A DNA stretch of 64,000 nt from Gemmatimonadota bacterium (GCA_039588275.1 JBDHAC010000011.1:1-64000); one strand, 5' to 3'. Positions 21,687-29,672 are shown, counted from the stretch's first letter. Translations and numbers: made by a program. The notes: generated from the letters alone by a model not told the origin.

Positions 21687-24152
21687 TCAGGGGGTGTGGA
21701 ACAGCCACTCCGACGGGATTGGCCGCCAGCCTTCGCCGGCGCCGCTGACCTCCAGTTCCAGCACCCGGCGGCCACCGGCATCGAAGTACCGCGCCTCGAC
21801 CTGGTGCAAGCCCGCACGGAGGGCCACGGCCCCCGATCGCTCGGTGGCGGCGTGCCGGCCGTCGTGGTCCACGGTCACCTCGCCTGCGACCGAGAGCCGG
21901 CTTCCGTCATCGGATGTGAGGCGGAAGGAATAGATGCCGTCCTGCGGAATTCGCAGGTAGCCCGTGAACCGAAGACCGAACCCGCTCTCCCGCGGTTCGC
22001 GCCCGGTCAGCCGCACTCCGCCCGCCGGACCGCGGGCGCCTGCGACACGACCGTCCAGGTCCTGAACCGAATCGAACTCACCCTCGTACAGCTCGAAGCG
22101 CAGACCCGACACGAGCCGGTCCTCGACGACGACCGCCGGGTCTCTCAGCCGGGCGCGGGTGAAACGAGCGGTGGCCATCGGGCCCGCGCGACCGTCCGGA
22201 AGGAAGACCCGCGCCCGAACCGGGACCCCGTCCTCCGAGAGCGAGAGCTCGATCGGGCCCGCATAGCGCGTCGATACGCGCGTCGGCTCCGATCCGTCGG
22301 TCGTGTAACGGATCTCGCCCGCGGCGACAGGCGCGTCCAGAGTCAAGCTCACCCGATCGGCCAGCAGGAGTCCATCCCCCTCCAACCCCCGCACGTCGGG
22401 GATGCGGTAGTTGACGCCTAACGCATCCAGCCTCGACAGGTGTGCGGGGAGACGCCCGAGGAAATGCGGCCAGCTGCGGGAGGTGCGCGGCGACCACACG
22501 ACCTCCGCCAACGCCAGCAGACGTGGAAAGACCATGTACTCCACGTGCTCCGAGGTCTTCATGTACTCCGTCCACACGTTCGCCTGTGCCCCGAGGACAT
22601 GCCCGGCTTCCTCTCGTGTGAGCTCGGCGGAAACCGGCTCGAACGCGTACACCTTCTCCAGCGGGGTGAAGCCCCCGATGGCGAGCGGCTCCTGACTTCG
22701 ATCGCGACTCTGATAGTAGTCGAAGTAGACGTGGCTGGACGGCGTCATGATGACGTCATGGCCCTGCCGGGCCGCCTCGATCCCGCCCGCGGTTCCGCGC
22801 CACGACATCACGGTCGCTTGCGGAGCGAGGCCGCCTTCCAGGATCTCGTCCCAGCCGATCAGCCGGCGTCCGTGCTCGAGCAGGAAACGCTCGATCCGGC
22901 GGATGAAGTAGCTTTGCAGCTCCTCCTCGCTCGCCAGACCCTCGCGGGCCAGCACGGCCTGTGCGATCGGACTCTCCTCCCAGCGCACCTTGGGCGCCTC
23001 GTCACCTCCGATGTGGATGTAACGGCTCGGGAAGAGCTCGAGGACCTCGGTCAGGACGTCCTCGAGGAACGCGAACGTGGCCTCGGACGGGCAGTACACG
23101 TCGTCGTATACGCCCCAGCGAGTTCCGACTTCGAACGGACCCTCGGTGCACGCCAGCTCCGGGTACGCCGCGAGCGCCGCGAGCGAATGTCCCGGCATCT
23201 CGATCTCGGGGATGACCGTGATGTGACGCTCCGCCGCGTACGCCACGACGTCGCGGATCTCCTCCTGCGTGTAGAATCCTCCGTACGGGACGCCGTCGCC
23301 CACGAACGGCTCGAAGTTCTTCTCGAGGATCGTCTCCCGGCGATACGCGCCGATCTCGGTGAGGCGCGGGTACTTCTCGATCTCGATCCGCCAGCCCTGA
23401 TCTTCGGTCAGGTGCCAGTGGAATGTGTTCAGCTTGTAGAGCGCGAGGAGATCCAGGTACTTCTTGATGAACTCGACCGGGAACATGTGCCGCCCCACGT
23501 CGAGGTGCATGCCGCGATACCGGAAGCGCGGGGCATCGGCGATCTCGACGGCGGGAATCGACCAGCCGTCGACCAGGCCGTCGCCCGCGAGTCCCCCTTC
23601 GACCTCGACGGGAAGGAGCTGTCGCAGGGTCTGAGTCGCGTAGAAGATCCCGGCCGGCGTGGCGGCGGACAGTACGACGGCGGTTGGATCGACGCGCAAG
23701 CGATAGGCCTCGGCGTTGACCGCCACACCGGGCTCGGGGTCAACCTCCGCACCGGGCTCGGCGGCGACCTCCGCGCCGGTCTCGGCGATGGCGTCATCCA
23801 GAACGAACGAGATCGTCCGAGGCGAGCCCGGCTCGACATCCTCGGCAATCGGGAGCCGCAGACCCGTACTGGCCCGCACGGCGGCGAGCCAGGATTCGGC
23901 CGCCGCTCGAAGCTCGGCGTGGCCGGGGTCGGAGAGCACCGCCCGAACCCGATCGTCGAGCGTAAAGGCACCCTCGATCGGAGCGAGCGCCGCCGGGCGA
24001 GGGACGATTTCGTATGCCTGCTGACCCGCGAGCCCGGCGCCTGCCAGCGGCGCGATGAGCGACCCGATCGCCAATCCGCCCCCGATTCGCTGGACCCGCC
24101 GCCCGAGGCCGACGGCCCGAGGCCTATCCCTGCCGTCCTTCGACGTCACCAT
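21687..24152 (-). CDS. Beta-N-acetylhexosaminidase (GH20) with Fn3-like/CHB_HEX_C and PA14 domains
   Basis: YRGMHLDVGRH, FHWHLTEDQGWRIE, PEIEMPGH, HIGGDE, IRYTTDGSEP, F.LTSDDGSRL (PA14). Confidence 0.95.
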   Translation of the reverse strand: MVTSKDGRDRPRAVGLGRRVQRIGGGLAIGSLIAPLAGAGLAGQQAYEIVPRPAALAPIEGAFTLDDRVRAVLSDPGHAELRAAAESWLAAVRASTGLRLPIAEDVEPGSPRTISFVLDDAIAETGAEVAAEPGAEVDPEPGVAVNAEAYRLRVDPTAVVLSAATPAGIFYATQTLRQLLPVEVEGGLAGDGLVDGWSIPAVEIADAPRFRYRGMHLDVGRHMFPVEFIKKYLDLLALYKLNTFHWHLTEDQGWRIEIEKYPRLTEIGAYRRETILEKNFEPFVGDGVPYGGFYTQEEIRDVVAYAAERHITVIPEIEMPGHSLAALAAYPELACTEGPFEVGTRWGVYDDVYCPSEATFAFLEDVLTEVLELFPSRYIHIGGDEAPKVRWEESPIAQAVLAREGLASEEELQSYFIRRIERFLLEHGRRLIGWDEILEGGLAPQATVMSWRGTAGGIEAARQGHDVIMTPSSHVYFDYYQSRDRSQEPLAIGGFTPLEKVYAFEPVSAELTREEAGHVLGAQANVWTEYMKTSEHVEYMVFPRLLALAEVVWSPRTSRSWPHFLGRLPAHLSRLDALGVNYRIPDVRGLEGDGLLLADRVSLTLDAPVAAGEIRYTTDGSEPTRVSTRYAGPIELSLSEDGVPVRARVFLPDGRAGPMATARFTRARLRDPAVVVEDRLVSGLRFELYEGEFDSVQDLDGRVAGARGPAGGVRLTGREPRESGFGLRFTGYLRIPQDGIYSFRLTSDDGSRLSVAGEVTVDHDGRHAATERSGAVALRAGLHQVEARYFDAGGRRVLELEVSGAGEGWRPIPSEWLFHTP
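23719..23790. repeat. Degenerate in-frame 24-bp tandem repeat x3 in GH20
   Basis: Encodes AETGAEVA/AEPGAEVD/PEPGVAVN. Confidence 0.75.
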
Positions 24153-24297
24153 CCTCGCCCCTCCCTCCCGAACGCGATCCCGACACTCTGGAGAGCAGGG
24201 CCCGGGACGGACAAGACCCGACCGTGAGGGCCGGGTCTGACCGTCGGACCCTGAGGATCAGGACCTGGTAACCGGACCCGAAGACGGTGGCCTCTGG

Positions 24298-25176
24298 TCA
24301 GAAGGTGGCCACCAGCGCCACGCTCAGGACCGTGTCCAGCTTGTCGAGCTCCACGAAGATCGTATCTCCCGTCGGCGTTCCGAGTGGCTGCTCGAGCAGC
24401 ACGCCGGCGAGCGACGGCTGGTTGTCCCACAGGAGCTGCAGGCTGGTTCGAAATGCCAGGTTGTCGCTGATCGCCACCGAGAGCGCATTGGTCAAGTCGC
24501 CGCGCAGATCATCGGTATCGTTCAGGTTCTCGTCCACGATCAGCATGCTGATGAAGTTCGTCGACTCCGTCAGCCGTTGCCAATAGTCCCACGAGAAGCG
24601 GGCGCCGGCGAACGTGTCCGAGCCCGAGCTCGCGACGTCGTCCTGGATCGTGTACGTGACACCGTAGTCGGTACGGAAACGGGTGCGTTCTTTCTCGACC
24701 CAGATGTTCCCGAGACCACCCGCGAACGAGGTACGGTTGTCAAAGCCCGCGAACGTGTTCCTCTCCCACCCGGCCCCGCCGTACGCGAAGAACGCTCCGG
24801 AGAACGCGTAGTCGTATCGGCCACGAGCGTAGTAGTTCTCAGCGGTCAATTTACTGTCGGACTGCTCGTTCACCTGGAAGTCGGTCGTTGTACCGACCGC
24901 CGTGCGAGTGGTCGTCGAAGACTCGCTACGCAGCCCACCTGCATTGAACCGAAACTCGGAGCTTTCCCAAACCTTCCGCAGCCCCGCGCCGAGCCCGAAC
25001 GTGTTCGCCTCCGCGTTCCCGCCTGTAAACAGGAACGACACTTCGGCCGTGTAGAACCAGCCGAGCTCCTTCTCGTCCTCCTGCCCCTGCAATGGGGCGG
25101 TCGTAAAGCAGAGCGCTGCTCCGACCACGGCCGTCGCGACCGCACCACCCCAACCCCTTAATGACGTCCGAACCAT
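24298..25176 (-). CDS. DUF481/YdiY-like outer-membrane beta-barrel
   Basis: Signal peptide, TGGNAEANT, AENYY.RGRYDY, W.RNTFAG.D.R...GG.G, amphipathic strands, terminal Phe. Confidence 0.8.
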   Translation of the reverse strand: MVRTSLRGWGGAVATAVVGAALCFTTAPLQGQEDEKELGWFYTAEVSFLFTGGNAEANTFGLGAGLRKVWESSEFRFNAGGLRSESSTTTRTAVGTTTDFQVNEQSDSKLTAENYYARGRYDYAFSGAFFAYGGAGWERNTFAGFDNRTSFAGGLGNIWVEKERTRFRTDYGVTYTIQDDVASSGSDTFAGARFSWDYWQRLTESTNFISMLIVDENLNDTDDLRGDLTNALSVAISDNLAFRTSLQLLWDNQPSLAGVLLEQPLGTPTGDTIFVELDKLDTVLSVALVATF

Positions 25177-25240
25177 GGGCGTGTGACCTCCGTATTTTGG
25201 GCGGCGTTTGCCGCCAGTGTGACGCGCGTGCCACACCGTA

Positions 25241-25268
25241 AGATCGCGACGCCGCGTAAAAGTCACAT
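25241..25268 (-). promoter_or_regulatory. Candidate ECF promoter ATGTGACT-N16-ATCT for the DUF481 gene
   Basis: Same -35 element and spacer length as the motifs at 27046-27073 and 27114-27141. Confidence 0.5.
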
Positions 25269-25276
25269 GGCGCCGA

Positions 25277-25315
25277 GCGGCCGAATCAGGCGGCCGAATC
25301 AGGCGGCCGAATCTG
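25277..25315. repeat. Tandem repeat GCGGCCGAATCAG x3 (13-bp unit)
   Basis: Read directly; one mismatch in the third copy. Confidence 0.9.
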
Positions 25316-25332
25316 GTTTGGCCTGGACCCGT

Positions 25333-26145
25333 CTACTGCCTCGCCACCTCCTCGAGGAAGGCGCTGTTCGCCACCGTGACGATTCCATCGTCGTGCTCCA
25401 GAATCGTCTGCGTGGGCGTGATCGCGCTCAGGCGGCCGCGCGCACCCGCAATCTCGAGCTCCTCTCCCATCCGGAACGTCTTCCGCGCGTAATAGCCCGC
25501 CAGGATGTTTCGCGTGATGTCTCGCGAGCCAAGCCCGAAGGACAGACCGAACGCGAGCGCGAAGCCGGCCAACACGCCCGTGGTGACCAGACGGACGATC
25601 TCGGTATCGATCCGCAGCTGTCCGATCGCCATGATGCCCAGCACGAAGAAGAGCACCGCGGTCACCACACCGCCGAGAGACGAAGCGAACTCGATTCCAG
25701 AGTTTTCCGCCGCGCGTGTGACGGCCCCACCAGCCGCCTGAGCCGCGATCGCACCCAGGACGAGGATCAAGACCGCCGCGACGACGTTGGGCAGGTACGA
25801 GAAGAACGAGCCCACTGCGCTGGATATCGCCCCCAACCCCAGAGCATCGGCCGCTGTCCGCAAGAAGAGCAACAGCAGGAGGAAGTAGGCCAGGCGAGGC
25901 AACAGCTGCGACATCTTCTTCTGCACGCCGATGCGACGAAGGGCCTGATCGACTCCCATCCTCTCGATCGCCGCATCCAAGCGCGCGCGGACGAGGAGGC
26001 CGCGCAGTAACCGCTCGAAGAGCTTGGCGACCAGCAGGGCCAGCAGGAGCAACACGATGCCGACCACGACTCGCGGCGTCATGTCGATAAGCGAATCCAG
26101 AAGCTGACGGAACGCGTCTCCGAGACGTTGTTGTATCTCCTGCAT
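25333..26145 (-). CDS. CmpX-like small mechanosensitive channel (MscS family, TM-helix repeats)
   Basis: P..VVGIVLLL and YLPNVVAAVLILV.G repeats; LAFGLSFGLG.RD...NILAG.Y; beta domain G.ELEI.G.RG....I...T...V.VAN. Confidence 0.85.
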   Translation of the reverse strand: MQEIQQRLGDAFRQLLDSLIDMTPRVVVGIVLLLLALLVAKLFERLLRGLLVRARLDAAIERMGVDQALRRIGVQKKMSQLLPRLAYFLLLLLFLRTAADALGLGAISSAVGSFFSYLPNVVAAVLILVLGAIAAQAAGGAVTRAAENSGIEFASSLGGVVTAVLFFVLGIMAIGQLRIDTEIVRLVTTGVLAGFALAFGLSFGLGSRDITRNILAGYYARKTFRMGEELEIAGARGRLSAITPTQTILEHDDGIVTVANSAFLEEVARQ

Positions 26146-26399
26146 CAGCCATCCCTCCTATCCTGGCTGCCGCCAATGACACCGAAGAGTGCCGGCAAGT
26201 ACTCGAGCAGCGCGTGCGCCATCGCCGACCAAGAGAACGTCGCGACGTCGGACACGAGCGTCCGTCGCTGAATCCGCCCGCGCAGCCGGCTCATGAAGCC
26301 GAGCTCCGGCTCCAGGGTCAGGCTGCCTAGCAGGTGGATCGGCTCGCCCGCATCGTCCATGTCTTCGACGCCCTCCGGTGGACCCTCGCGGTCGGTCAT
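26145..26399 (-). CDS. Small protein, putative CfrX-like anti-sigma/regulator
   Basis: 84 aa, translationally coupled to both neighbours; acidic N-terminus and hydrophobic C-terminal helix. Confidence 0.65.
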   Translation of the reverse strand: MTDREGPPEGVEDMDDAGEPIHLLGSLTLEPELGFMSRLRGRIQRRTLVSDVATFSWSAMAHALLEYLPALFGVIGGSQDRRDG

Positions 26400-27031
26400 T
26401 CCCCCTCGCCCTCTCCCTCGATCAAAGCGTCCTCGTTCCCCTCAGCAACACCGGTCAACTCCTGGTACCGTTCCCGAAACTCCTCACGTGCTCGTTTGAT
26501 GCGCATCTTGACCGCCGACAGCCCAATCTGCAGGTGCTCCGCGATCTCTTGATAGGAGAACCCGTCCAGGTCGCGCATCAACAGTGGTACCCGCAGGGTC
26601 TCCGACATCGAATCCAGGACGGCCTCGATCTGCACCCCTTCTTCCGTCGCCACCAGCCGGCGCTCGGCCTTCGGCTCCCTGCGCATCGCCTCGTGTGCCT
26701 GCACGGCGGGCGCGTCCGCATCCACACGATCGGGTTGTCGCTGCCGCTTCTTCAGGAAATTGATGCAGTGATTGACCTTGATCCTCTGCAACCAGGTCCC
26801 GAAGGCGGCCTGCCCGCGGAAGCTCTTGATGCCGAAGAACGCTCGCGTGAACACCTCCTGCGCGAGGTCTTCGGCATCATCGGGCGACCGCGTCATATAG
26901 CGACAGTTCGCCAGGATGCGGCCGCGGTGGCGTTGGACGAGGACCTCGAACGCCCGCAGATCGCCCGCACCCGCCTCCTGCACCGTCTCGACCAGCACGT
27001 CGTCGGCGACCGAGTCGTATTCGTGTGCCAT
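26396..27031 (-). CDS. ECF sigma factor, SigX-like
   Basis: RAFEVLV.RH, DAEDLAQEVF...FFGIKSF.G.AAF.TWL, YQEIAE.L.IGLSAVKMRIKRA; the GLSAxKMRxKRA region-4 pattern recalls Pseudomonas SigX. Confidence 0.9.
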   Translation of the reverse strand: MAHEYDSVADDVLVETVQEAGAGDLRAFEVLVQRHRGRILANCRYMTRSPDDAEDLAQEVFTRAFFGIKSFRGQAAFGTWLQRIKVNHCINFLKKRQRQPDRVDADAPAVQAHEAMRREPKAERRLVATEEGVQIEAVLDSMSETLRVPLLMRDLDGFSYQEIAEHLQIGLSAVKMRIKRAREEFRERYQELTGVAEGNEDALIEGEGEGE

Positions 27032-27045
27032 GATTACACCCTCAT

Positions 27046-27073
27046 GGACACGACTGCTGCCCGAGGGTCACAT
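27046..27073 (-). promoter_or_regulatory. Candidate autoregulatory ECF promoter ATGTGACC-N16-GTCC
   Basis: Immediately upstream of the sigma ATG; shares ATGTGACCCTCG with the divergent copy. Confidence 0.6.
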
Positions 27074-27113
27074 GAATCAAGGGTGTGCTACCCGGGATCG
27101 CCTGGATGCCCGG

Positions 27114-27141
27114 ATGTGACCCTCGCGCGGTGGGATTGTCT
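27114..27141 (+). promoter_or_regulatory. Candidate ECF promoter ATGTGACC-N16-GTCT for mscL
   Basis: 50 nt upstream of the mscL ATG; same -35 and spacer length as the sigma promoter. Confidence 0.6.
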
Positions 27142-27191
27142 GATGCACGTTGATTGGATCTCACCGACCCGTTCGCGAAAGGAGCACCGAG

Positions 27192-27626
27192 ATGCTCAAA
27201 GAGTTCAAGGAGTTCGCCATCAAGGGCAACATGCTCGACATGGCCGTCGGCATCATCATCGGCGCCGCGTTCGGCACCATCATCACCTCGTTGGTCAACG
27301 ACGTGATCATGCCGCCGATCGGTCTGGCGCTGGGCAACGTCGACTTCTCCCAGCTTCACGCGGTCCTCCAGCAAGGCGACCCGGCGGGGCCGTACGCCAC
27401 GCTCGCGGCGGCCGAGGAGGCCGGCGCCGTCACGCTCAACTGGGGCGCGTTCATCAACTCCGTTCTCAGCTTCTTGATCGTCGCGTTCTCCGTGTTCATG
27501 GTCGTCCGCAGCTTCAACAAGCTGCGCGCTGAACAGGAGGCTCCGCCCGAGGAAGCACCACCCGAGCCTTCCGCGGAAGAGACCCTGCTCGGAGAGATCC
27601 GGGATCTCCTCAAGGCGGGAGGATAG
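27192..27626 (+). CDS. mscL: Large-conductance mechanosensitive channel
   Basis: [59 protein letters not shown]. Confidence 0.97.
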
Positions 27627-27664
27627 CGACCCGTCGTCGACGAAAGCCAGCGACAAAAGCCAGC

Positions 27665-27720
27665 CGGACGTCATCAAGCGGCCCCATCGGCGTCACGTCG
27701 ACGGGGCCGTTTGACGTCCG
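27665..27720 (+). terminator. Long hairpin downstream of mscL
   Basis: CGGACGTCA..AAGCGGCCCC..loop..GGGGCCGTTTGACGTCCG; no long U tract. Confidence 0.55.
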
Positions 27721-27811
27721 TGCGCGGGATACAGGGTTCGAAACCCGCCGCTCCTGGCGCCCGTAGGGGGTGTCGAGCCGACTGCACCTACTCAGCCCCT
27801 CGGAGTGGATC

Positions 27812-28123
27812 ATGGATGAGATTGCCCCGATGCTCGTATTGCTCACGCTGATCCTCACGACCGGTGGGGTCATCCTGTTCCGCCCGCTCGCGAAGCGCCT
27901 CGGGGATCTCCTCGAGATCATGGCCCAGCAGCGGCGCGCGGTCCGGGAGAACGACGCGGGCGTGCAAATGCGCGAGGTGGTGGAGACGCTGAACGCGCGA
28001 ATCGCACTGCTCGAAGAGCGTCAGGATTTCACCGACGCGCTCCTATCGGCGTCCCGGTCAGGGGCGGCCTCGGAGCTGTCGGACCCCACAGCGCGGAGCC
28101 TGCCACAGCGACCCGTATCCTGA
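27812..28123 (+). CDS. Small single-TM coiled-coil protein (PspB-like)
   Basis: GGAG RBS; N-terminal TM, then RIALLEERQDFTDALL. Confidence 0.7.
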   Translation: MDEIAPMLVLLTLILTTGGVILFRPLAKRLGDLLEIMAQQRRAVRENDAGVQMREVVETLNARIALLEERQDFTDALLSASRSGAASELSDPTARSLPQRPVS

Positions 28124-28278: not shown

Positions 28279-29454
28279 TCACTCCACCAATCTGAGGTAT
28301 TTCACCACGGGCCCCGCGTTGCTGCCGCTACCACCGCCGATCGCCAGAAGGGGCATGATGCGACCGTATATGTTTGCCGCCCCGGGTGGACCCGGATCGA
28401 CGTCCTCGATGAAGACCCCGACGAAGTGGCTGATCTCGAAGTGCGGACCGGACCCCTGCTGCGTGTAGGTGTTGGGGTCGAACACCGGCATCGCGCGGTA
28501 TCGCAACCCACCCGTCACGACCTGGTTGCCGTTGAGCGTGTCAATAATGCATTGACAGGACGAATTGTACTCTTGCCCCGGGTATAGGTTGATGATGTCC
28601 CGGAACGTTTCGGCGAGGGTCTGCCGGTTGCCCGACTCTCGATAGAGCGAATCGCCGGCAACGTAAGCGGAGTCCTCGCCGTCGGGGCAGCCCAGGATCC
28701 GCTCACGGATCGGCGGGACGCCGTTGTTCTGTGGCGGGAGCCACAGCTCCCACATCCCGGGCATCAGGCGCGTGCTGGGCGGCGGGCCGGGCGTCGATCC
28801 TCCTTGCGAGGGGAGGAGCACGAACGGCTCGTAGAGCTGCCACCCGGTATAGGCCGCCTCGGGCGTGATGCCATCGGCCTGGTACGGTCCAATGTAGTAA
28901 TCCCCGTCCAACGGTTCCCATTCGGGTGTGCCGATCGACACCGGTTCGGGGGGCGAGTAGAAGGTGTCATACCACCTGTCCGGGAGCGCGACGGGTAGCA
29001 CACAGCTTACCGAGCTCGGTCCGGTTGCAGCCTCCGCTGCCGCCACCGTCCCGACGTCCACGTCGTTCATCCCGAACAGGCGAGCGAACAGCGTGCTCAC
29101 GGGTCCGCCATAGGACTGGCTGCGCAGGACGCGAACCCGAACCGTATCCGGGAGAATCACATCGATGTCCTGATCGCGTAGCAGGATGTTGCTGGTTCCG
29201 ACATCGTTGGAGTCGGCGTACGCCTTGGCCCAGTCTCGAGCCTGGGAGCCGTCCGGTACGTAGATGAGTGATGCCGCGCCCGCGAGCGCCGCTCCGTCGG
29301 CGGTGCGTTGGGCTTCGGTCCGCCGCTGCATGAGCATTCCGAGGTCGATGGACAAGGCCGCCATCGAAAGGAATACGACGATGCCAAGCGCCAGAAAGGC
29401 GCTGATTGCCCCCCGCTCGTCCCCACCCCGCCCCAGGCCATGAGAGACTCGCAT
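28279..29454 (-). CDS. TadG/TadE-like Flp pilus pseudopilin with large C-terminal domain
   Basis: ERGAI + hydrophobic helix + ALSIDLG...R.EAQRTADGAALAGA; V.TLFARLFG....V...A.A. Confidence 0.8.
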   Translation of the reverse strand: MRVSHGLGRGGDERGAISAFLALGIVVFLSMAALSIDLGMLMQRRTEAQRTADGAALAGAASLIYVPDGSQARDWAKAYADSNDVGTSNILLRDQDIDVILPDTVRVRVLRSQSYGGPVSTLFARLFGMNDVDVGTVAAAEAATGPSSVSCVLPVALPDRWYDTFYSPPEPVSIGTPEWEPLDGDYYIGPYQADGITPEAAYTGWQLYEPFVLLPSQGGSTPGPPPSTRLMPGMWELWLPPQNNGVPPIRERILGCPDGEDSAYVAGDSLYRESGNRQTLAETFRDIINLYPGQEYNSSCQCIIDTLNGNQVVTGGLRYRAMPVFDPNTYTQQGSGPHFEISHFVGVFIEDVDPGPPGAANIYGRIMPLLAIGGGSGSNAGPVVKYLRLVE

Positions 29455-29672
29455 GGGTCTGCCTCGGGATTCGGGTGATGCCGCTATTATTCTCGCGCCT
29501 TGCCGCCGCTTCACTCCCGCGGACTCGTGCGCCTCGGCACTGGGCTGTTGCTGCGGATCTCCACCACCTACTGCGGACGCCCGGGAGCGGCTGCTCCCGC
29601 GACGAGAAAACCGCGTGGGTGGTCCCAACTGAGGGACCCGGTCCGACGACTGATGCTCACCGGACTCGCAAT

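Follow-up and report, generated by a model that had tools for sequence, protein, structure and literature searches.

An ECF sigma factor, a small putative anti-sigma factor and a CmpX-type channel-like protein in a Gemmatimonadota bacterium: a candidate self-activating switch with mscL and a DUF481 barrel gene as probable outputs

How bacteria convert membrane tension into gene expression is poorly understood. SigX of Pseudomonas is the only studied extracytoplasmic function (ECF) sigma factor linked to an MscS-like protein, and it has neither a defined promoter consensus nor an agreed mechanism. The same question is raised by a locus at positions 24298–27626 of a 64,000-nucleotide (nt) stretch of DNA from a Gemmatimonadota bacterium (GCA_039588275.1, JBDHAC010000011.1:1-64000), the whole of which is called the window here. 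In this locus, genes for an ECF sigma factor, a protein of 84 amino acids (aa) and a CmpX-type, truncated MscS-like membrane protein lie between mscL, the gene for the large-conductance mechanosensitive channel, and a gene for a DUF481 (YdiY-like) outer-membrane beta-barrel. Does the sigma factor control this neighborhood, and to which signal could it respond? Our analysis indicates that the locus probably encodes a self-activating ECF switch, in which the sigma factor is held by the 84-aa protein as an anti-sigma factor and in which its own operon, mscL and the DUF481 barrel gene are direct outputs. This reading builds on the observed gene content and overlaps, on their conservation, and on a shared motif together with its genome-wide ranking.

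All five genes named in an earlier note on this DNA were found where it had placed them. The sigma factor gene (26396–27031, minus strand, 211 aa) has the Sigma70_r2 and r4_2 domains and matches TIGR02937. It is followed on the same strand by the small gene (26145–26399, 84 aa), a predicted anti-sigma factor gene without a Pfam or NCBIfam family, and by the channel gene (25333–26145, 270 aa) with PF05552 and a partial PF00924. The small-gene ATG overlaps the sigma stop codon by four bases (ATGA), and the channel ATG and the small-gene stop codon have one base in common (TGATG), in line with the translational coupling that the earlier note had claimed. The DUF481 gene (24298–25176, minus strand, 292 aa from ATG 25176) matches PF04338 at 5.3e-29, with 102.2 bits against a gathering threshold of 21.1, and is separated from the channel gene by 156 nt when its start is taken at that ATG. 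The mscL gene (27192–27626, plus strand, 144 aa; PF01741, 3.9e-45) is divergent from the sigma gene across an intergenic region of 160 base pairs (bp) (27032–27191), the distance expected from the earlier note. It scores above two curated equivalog models (TIGR00220, 138 bits against a cut-off of 71; NF001843, 177.6 against 142), and its start was set at ATG 27192 because the family models align from residue 14–15 of the longest open reading frame (ORF).

To how many genomes does this arrangement extend? A scan of one genome per species across all prokaryotes gave 80 loci, and 65 of them hold a channel orthologue that is 41–66% identical. These 65 are labelled Gemmatimonadota, Acidobacteriota (Bryobacterales, Acidobacteriaceae, Vicinamibacterales and others), Eisenbacteria and Myxococcota/Bradymonadia, with a few unlabelled; Terracidiphilus and Paludibaculum are two of the genus labels on the matched loci. 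Synteny was called by searching the six-frame ORFs of the loci with hidden Markov models built here. Directly upstream of the channel gene, and in the same order, the sigma gene was found at 59 of the 65 loci and the small gene at 60. Five of the six loci without a sigma gene have less than 140 nt of upstream DNA; the triad is thus present at 59 of the 60 loci with enough upstream DNA. The true exception is L082 (labelled Longimicrobiaceae), which has 6.8 kb of upstream DNA and a channel gene with neither the sigma gene nor the small gene beside it.

Further neighbors were sought by all-against-all clustering of the flanking ORFs, with Pfam names. Only mscL, DUF481 and DUF4332, a helix-hairpin-helix protein, recurred. 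Within 3 kb of the triad, mscL was present at 22 of 59 loci (15 of the 35 loci flanked by 3 kb or more on each side), DUF481 at 25 of 59 (17 of 35) and DUF4332 at 10 of 59 (4 of 35); mscL and DUF481 were both present at 19 of 59. By label, mscL was this close in 8/15 Gemmatimonadota, 11/34 Acidobacteriota, 1/4 Eisenbacteria, 2/4 other and 0/2 Myxococcota loci. The DUF481 neighbors form two size classes, both of which match PF04338 at 1e-31 to 1e-36. The commonest layout has DUF481, sometimes DUF4332, and mscL on one strand, followed by the sigma, small and channel genes on the other; DUF481 sometimes lies after the channel gene, as in the window. A genome of the same family as the window genome (G280) has exactly the layout of the window, with mscL divergent from the sigma, small, channel and DUF481 genes. 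A lack of synteny between the sigma gene and mscL or DUF481 in relatives had been named in the earlier note as a point that would count against it, and the 22 and 25 loci speak to the contrary. The arrangement is more than chance, as its gene order recurs in dozens of genomes.

If the sigma factor controls these genes, a common promoter would be expected before them. Bipartite words were enumerated in the 250 nt upstream of the sigma gene at 60 loci. The word GTGAC...GGTC occurred in 22 of the 60 regions, compared to a maximum of 6–9 in five shuffles, and its reverse complement was enriched too. The refined position weight matrix (PWM) has the consensus cATGTGACTTT-N13(12-14)-yKGTCTA and scored at least 14.7 in 45 of the 60 regions. 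The motif is strand-specific, has a fixed spacer of 12–14 nt and ends 6–110 nt before the sigma match in most loci. A match of 23.6 is still present at L082, 59 nt upstream of the channel gene.

In the window, the motif was found before three transcription units. The site of the sigma operon (27045–27074, minus strand) reads CATGTGACCCT-N12-GTGTCCA, has a PWM score of 20.8 and ends 13 nt before the sigma ATG. The mscL site (27113–27142, plus strand), GATGTGACCCT-N12-TTGTCTG, scores 20.2 and ends 49 nt before the mscL ATG; the sigma and mscL sites have the 12-nt string ATGTGACCCTCG in common. The DUF481 site (25240–25269, minus strand), CATGTGACTTT-N12-CGATCTT, scores 19.9 with a perfect −35 part. 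The longest DUF481 ORF opens at GTG 25266, a codon within this last site. At ATG 25176, a GGAGG lies 10 nt upstream and a signal-peptide-like N-terminus follows, and this ATG is most likely the gene start as judged from the sequence. The earlier note had taken mscL as a direct output, and in silico both mscL and DUF481 do carry the motif of the sigma operon. No sigma-70-type promoter was predicted in 24100–27800.

The genome-wide ranking of the motif was also examined. The four best PWM matches on both strands of the 4.1-Mb genome are the sigma site (20.8), a site on contig C10 (20.6), the mscL site (20.2) and the DUF481 site (19.9), and DNA shuffled within 500-nt blocks gave no match of 20 or more. 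The mscL and DUF481 sites were outside the training set of the PWM, and the sigma site of the window was one of the 45 training sites. Thus, two of the three best non-training matches of the genome fall within 2 kb of the sigma gene. The C10 site (about 70301, minus strand) lies 176 nt before a gene for a secreted CARDB/BACON-domain protein (L135:939-1625); it could be one more member of the regulon or have arisen by chance. The simpler pattern ATGTGAC-N16-18-GTC matched twice in the window, both times in the sigma–mscL spacer; at least two matches occurred in 6 of 100 shuffles, and this count is weak evidence alone.

The targets of the motif in relatives were then collected from the 65 loci and the window region (742 kb, both strands, PWM score of at least 15). 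The 118 matches comprised 46 before sigma genes, 15 before mscL, 10 before DUF481, 6 before DUF4332, 4 before MscS-like paralogues and 37 that were unassigned. Except for four low-scoring ones, the unassigned matches were followed (33 of 37), and 32 had an ORF within 300 nt. By Pfam, these ORFs encoded two MscL, one DUF4332, one full-length MscS, two BON+LysM and two PilZ proteins, eight proteins of single families (dodecin, DUF937, M20 peptidase, peptidoglycan-binding, DPBB lytic-transglycosylase-like, an outer-membrane protein barrel with TSP3 repeats, flagellar rod and response regulator) and 16 proteins of no family. The regulon appears to vary by lineage, and envelope and osmotic-stress genes seem to make up much of the motif-preceded set. 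The BON+LysM, full-length MscS and PilZ genes behind the motif lie at L043:9707-10183, L085:10474-11028, L100:5013-5813, L041:5463-5930 and L102:5433-5933. The DUF4332 gene recurs by module or motif at L041, L045–L047, L051, L052, L054, L056, L074, L084, L089 and L102, and none was found in the window.

With the window counted, mscL is adjacent in 23 places, and in 17 of these the motif stands directly before it. In five of the other six (L061, L070, L071, L089 and L103), the motif precedes another gene, and mscL follows that gene in the same orientation and would form an operon with it. At five Acidobacteriaceae-labelled loci (L055, L078, L087, L091 and L093), the usual motif is missing directly before the sigma gene and strong sites (24–27) stand before the divergent mscL. 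Ten triad genomes without a neighboring mscL were also searched for the mscL family. One of them, L143, has a site of 27.1 directly upstream of an unlinked mscL, and another, L142, has a site of 19.9 before a string of DUF481, mscL and MscS-like genes. On these sites, mscL as an output looks to be a frequent, not a universal, feature of the module family.

What could hold the sigma factor at rest? At E ≤ 1e-3, a search of 1.84 billion representative proteins gave 157 relatives of the 84-aa protein, almost all of them 66–135 aa long. An alignment of 55 relatives (A2) showed an acidic, variable N-terminus, a conserved middle at about residues 16–50 (D-x-GEP...L..L...P..GF..R.R..I.RR.L), and a hydrophobic or amphipathic C-terminal helix that carries conserved Trp and Glu residues and leads into a charged tail. 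No zinc motif was seen in this alignment. The protein is without an ordinary transmembrane helix, and it is the C-terminal helix that carries the conserved Glu. A look-up in the Atlas gave only unnamed acidobacterial clusters, and the nearest named one, a zf-HC2 anti-sigma cluster at 0.79, is a weak lead.

The sigma factor and the small protein were co-folded in three runs with three controls, using a 50-row alignment (A3) for the former and the 55-row A2 for the latter. The interface score ipSAE was 0.77, 0.76 and 0.77, compared to 0.02 for the best control. The mark used for this score is reached by 116 of 157 solved complexes and by 2 of 215 mismatched pairs, counts that are rough since self-made alignments were used. 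At least 85% of the contacts agreed between runs, and the predicted local distance difference test (pLDDT) of the partner was 64–66. The predicted contacts join small-protein residues 16–50 to sigma residues 22–66 (region 2) and 131–189 (region 4), and residues 51–84 made no confident contact. Of the co-fold of sigma factor, small protein and channel that the earlier note had suggested, the sigma–small-protein pair thus came out as a predicted clamp. Classical ECF/anti-sigma pairs have the anti-sigma domain lodged between regions 2 and 4 of the sigma factor, and the predicted contacts on both regions resemble this arrangement. The small protein differs in being much shorter than the classical domain and in lacking a zinc motif, a known family and an ordinary transmembrane helix. 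Since sigma/anti-sigma complexes have been solved, including ECF pairs, part of the co-fold pass may reflect likeness to them. The model supports a small protein that would hold the sigma factor in anti-sigma geometry.

These results suggest the following mechanism. The sigma factor would recognize a cATGTGACyyT-N12-14-yKGTCta promoter before three units in this genome, and the copy before its own operon would provide positive autoregulation. At rest, residues 16–50 of the small protein would be wedged between sigma regions 2 and 4 and prevent the sigma factor from joining RNA polymerase. A signal from the envelope or membrane, with membrane tension or hypo-osmotic stress as the most plausible one, would free it, and the freed sigma factor would then raise the levels of its own module, of the barrel protein and of MscL as an emergency valve. 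Tension or osmotic downshift is proposed as the signal because the outputs are MscL and a barrel, and in relatives also MscS, BON-LysM and envelope proteins. The sigma/anti-sigma contact is predicted from the model, and that the motif is the promoter of this sigma factor and that tension is the signal are what we infer from gene content and motif placement.

Several points weigh against the locus being such a regulon. The motif was derived and thresholded after the data had been seen, with the sigma site of the window in training. It is missing from 15 of the 60 sigma-upstream regions, mostly of one Acidobacteriaceae clade, and the −10 part of the DUF481 site deviates, with GATC for the consensus GGTC or TGTC. 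At lower scores, the genome shows no excess over shuffled DNA (7 real and 6 shuffled matches at 18 or more; 25 and 39 at 15 or more), and therefore only the top few PWM matches carry information. The neighbors are not constant: 37 of the 59 triad loci are without mscL within 3 kb, and 34 are without DUF481 nearby. Among the ten triad genomes searched for an unlinked mscL, three had no match and seven had one, one of them below the family cut-off; five of these seven genes had no site of 12 or more in the right orientation. The module is also missing from all but five of the 400 genomes that were sampled in its phylum. Finally, in the closest studied system, overexpression of cmpX in P. aeruginosa left sigX and cfrX expression unchanged, and mscL was reported to be modulated by AlgU (PMC10965496).

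Close homologues carry source names that point to Gemmatimonadota. The rarity of the module in this phylum was seen in two samples. With the channel protein as a query, 200 genomes of the phylum gave only paralogues of 27–36% identity, with no sigma or small gene beside them. A profile search of the 400 other genomes found true orthologues in five, with 2/30 in the family of the window genome, 3/70 in family f6, and 0/166 and 0/93 in the two largest families. Because of this rarity, the module is, by its distribution, best described as an accessory circuit that is rare and patchy in its own phylum. The patchy spread, with five of 400 genomes in the phylum and many Acidobacteriota-labelled loci outside it, suggests loss or lateral transfer.

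How the signal reaches the sigma factor is a separate matter. An MscS homologue may have been recruited as a tension receptor, with the C-terminal helix of the 84-aa protein docking on the channel, gating altering the hold on the sigma factor, and tension leading to transcription of mscL and the barrel gene; this is a tentative proposal, and we regard it as possible but doubtful. The channel-like protein is considered as a sensor, perceiving the signal through the free C-terminal helix, because it is tied to the sigma and small genes (59 of 60, overlapping codons) more tightly than any output gene. The main alternative accepts the regulon as described and takes the channel-like protein as an output, a valve or tension buffer made together with MscL. 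The signal would then be read in another way, for example through anti-sigma proteolysis, or through the small protein if it senses the bilayer with its own amphipathic C-terminal helix. As the third gene of an autoregulated operon, the channel gene would itself be induced. Other motif-preceded genes encode ordinary MscS-family channels (a full MscS at L100; paralogues at L049, L056 and L083), and residues 51–84 of the small protein, which lack a confident contact in the co-fold, would be free to reach the membrane. The unchanged sigX and cfrX expression under cmpX overexpression fits this alternative as well. On the other hand, the tie of 59 of 60, against 22–25 of 59 for the output genes, is the pattern of a signalling partner, and sigX transcription was reduced in a cmpX mutant of P. 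aeruginosa (PMC10965496). We judge the channel as a mere output to be unlikely. Because cmpX overexpression was neutral and mscL was AlgU-modulated, the closest studied system gives no direct support to the sensor model or to mscL as an output, and by this comparison the P. aeruginosa data on cmpX point both ways between sensor and output.

The self-activating switch was also weighed against a motif that belongs to another regulator or sigma factor. Under that reading, mscL, DUF481 and the sigma operon would be neighbors under common control, and the ECF sigma factor would act on other targets. The link from motif to sigma factor rests on sequence, moderate-score sites are not in excess over shuffles in the genome, and TGTGAC is reported as the −35 part for ECF118 and ECF278 (PMC7826278 supplement). 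The −10 parts and contexts of ECF118 and ECF278 differ from those found here, and these two groups were rejected as candidates. The motif nevertheless accompanies the triad across phyla and is strand-specific with a fixed 12–14 nt spacer, and its position, 6–110 nt before the sigma match in most loci, is as in autoregulated ECF promoters. A bipartite promoter with a GTC-type −10 is typical of ECF sigma factors, and the motif is of this kind. Control by another regulator is very unlikely in our view.

An incidental neighborhood, with a housekeeping mscL and DUF481 gene beside an ordinary envelope-stress ECF module, would suit the triad loci without these neighbors and the five unlinked mscL genes without the motif, but it is hardly credible and largely refuted by cross-phylum recurrence and the shared motif, since 22 of the 59 genomes, from several phyla, have their normally single-copy mscL gene no more than 3 kb from the triad and in varied arrangements (divergent upstream, same-strand downstream), and three of the four best motif matches of the 4.1-Mb genome lie within about 2 kb of each other at this locus.

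Does the self-activating switch belong to the SigX group? The sigma factor is of the ECF type (sigma-70 group 4), with PF04542 (1.7e-16) and PF08281 (8.5e-15), regions 2 and 4 only, and 89.3 bits against the TIGR02937 superfamily cut-off of 42.9. The SigX equivalog model NF007222 gave 98.2 bits, below its cut-off of 194, and RpoE-type models scored higher (RpoE TIGR02939, 122.6 bits; PRK11922, 116.2 bits). Among 19 ECF-like matches in the same genome, this sigma factor was the best match of the SigX model (97.8 bits compared to 70.6 for the next). In eight orthologues or more distant relatives from other phyla, the SigX model ranked first in two (119.9 and 102 bits) and between second and sixth in the other six; the cut-off was reached by none of the eight, nor in any of the 14 control genomes searched. 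These models therefore do not show that the sigma factor belongs to the SigX group ECF102, as the distant SigX-type system of the earlier note would require. The genomic context is of the SigX/ECF102 type, as a small putative anti-sigma factor, an MscS-like channel and an outer-membrane protein adjoin the sigma gene, with differences in gene order and in outer-membrane protein family. In the passages of the ECF classification supplement, ECF102 comprises Bacteroidetes (66%) and Gammaproteobacteria (34%) only, and a mechanosensitive channel is named under ECF102 only (PMC7826278). ECF270 and ECF271 were also considered and rejected; they have zinc-finger anti-sigma factors, unlike the 84-aa protein.

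In P. aeruginosa, the cluster is cmaX-cfrX-cmpX-sigX-oprF with SigX as ECF102s1 (PMC7826278, PMC8999054, PMC7641640, PMC10965496), and a CfrX-CmpX-OprF "mechanosensing complex" has been proposed (PMC8999054, PMC7826278). The neighborhood of sigX given in the earlier note was thus correct, and its design matches the locus. Both have an ECF sigma factor and a small putative anti-sigma factor of 84 aa (CfrX, PMC7641640), a comparison of length only. Likened by gene content, both also have a short MscS homologue (about 270 aa) and an outer-membrane protein gene. The sigma factor controls the small-protein and channel genes in Pseudomonas and would do so here, as judged from the motif. The differences are several. 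In Pseudomonas, cfrX-cmpX lie upstream of sigX, whereas the order here is sigma, small and channel genes with overlapping codons. As outer-membrane partner, Pseudomonas has OprF and the present locus DUF481, and the DUF481 barrel may replace OprF. YdiY is annotated as "salt-induced". The topic is not addressed in the passages of PMC5681696. The Pseudomonas system belongs to Gammaproteobacteria, and the present one to Gemmatimonadota, Acidobacteriota and others. The ECF102 promoter is described as "not conserved" (PMC7826278 supplement) and the SigX consensus as "not precisely defined" (PMC7641640), whereas the motif here is sharp and would be autoregulatory. The mscL gene, AlgU-modulated in P. 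aeruginosa, here carries the motif of the module. Outside Pseudomonas, the ECF102 subgroups s2 and s5 of Bacteroidetes resemble the module in having an ECF sigma factor with a conserved mechanosensitive-channel neighbor (PMC7826278). They differ in phylum, and the passages describe no small protein, mscL, DUF481 or promoter motif for them; this comparison is by description. In the literature searched, we found no paper on such an ECF module in either Acidobacteriota or Gemmatimonadota and none on a sigma–mscL–DUF481 or SigX–mscL link, and among the papers listed for DUF481 or YdiY none dealt with sigma factors. This agrees with the earlier note, to which no described sigX–mscL link was known.

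The channel-like protein has the features of the CmpX-type class: 270 aa (about 270–285 in the class), PF05552 helices, an MscS pore helix and beta-domain, and no C-terminal domain. PF05552 matches in two stretches (4.7e-15) and the partial MscS beta-domain PF00924 at residues 210–266 (1.4e-4); the C-terminal MscS domain PF21082 was not matched in Pfam. Its AlphaFold model (mean pLDDT 79.9) has five long helices and a small beta-domain, where it ends. The best Foldseek match of the model is E. coli MscS (4agf_A, E 4.3e-7, 155 columns), followed more weakly by a 137-aa truncated Trypanosoma cruzi MscS (9bgq, E 1.5e-3). The model superposes on the transmembrane helices, pore helix and beta-domain of E. 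coli MscS (PDB 4agf, 2vv5, 2oau); it differs in having no C-terminal alpha/beta domain and in its long extra N-terminal helices, which carry PF05552. The nearest Atlas clusters, as a lead only, are 274-aa PF05552+PF00924 proteins of Pseudomonadota. A 285-aa protein of Pseudoalteromonas shares the Pfam composition of the channel-like protein, with 34% identity across 167 residues. A tblastn search on plasmids found a CmpX-like gene only in two Pseudoalteromonas chromid copies, with no sigma gene beside it and no SigX in the record. A homologue search with the 285-aa protein gave Alteromonadales and allies among the best 120 matches, with no Pseudomonas in that set. On one chromid (L131, NZ_CP022523.1, 4680–7706), the 285-aa gene adjoins two MgtE-like magnesium-transporter genes and has no sigma gene nearby; these neighbors recall the CorA-like cmaX beside cfrX-cmpX in Pseudomonas.

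As a compact, translationally coupled triad with a sharp motif and a small output set (MscL and the DUF481 barrel; in relatives also MscS, BON-LysM and DUF4332 proteins), the module makes the SigX/CmpX question testable. The DUF481 and DUF4332 proteins would gain a first regulatory context. If the channel is indeed a tension receptor, the module would be a tractable model for SigX/CmpX mechanosensing, with a promoter conserved across Acidobacteriota, Gemmatimonadota and allies, and the first transcriptional tension regulon with MscL as an output. Its practical reach is modest, as an accessory circuit of uncultured soil and water bacteria that is known here from predictions.

Some minor features of the window were also recorded. 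The flanking minus-strand genes encode an 821-aa GH20 beta-hexosaminidase with a PA14 domain (21687–24152) and a TadE/G-like pilus-assembly protein (28279–29628); for neither of them did we see a motif or a conserved link to the module. Tandem Repeats Finder detected 2.8 copies of a perfect 13-bp tandem repeat, GCGGCCGAATCAG on the plus strand, at 25277–25313 (100% matches, score 74). The repeat has the stop codon of the channel gene on one side and the promoter-like motif of DUF481 on the other, and a terminator-like hairpin of the plus strand overlaps it. An ORF of 117 aa (27770–28123, plus strand) follows mscL after 143 nt and may share a transcript with it; the encoded protein contains a single hydrophobic stretch and matches no family in Pfam or NCBIfam.

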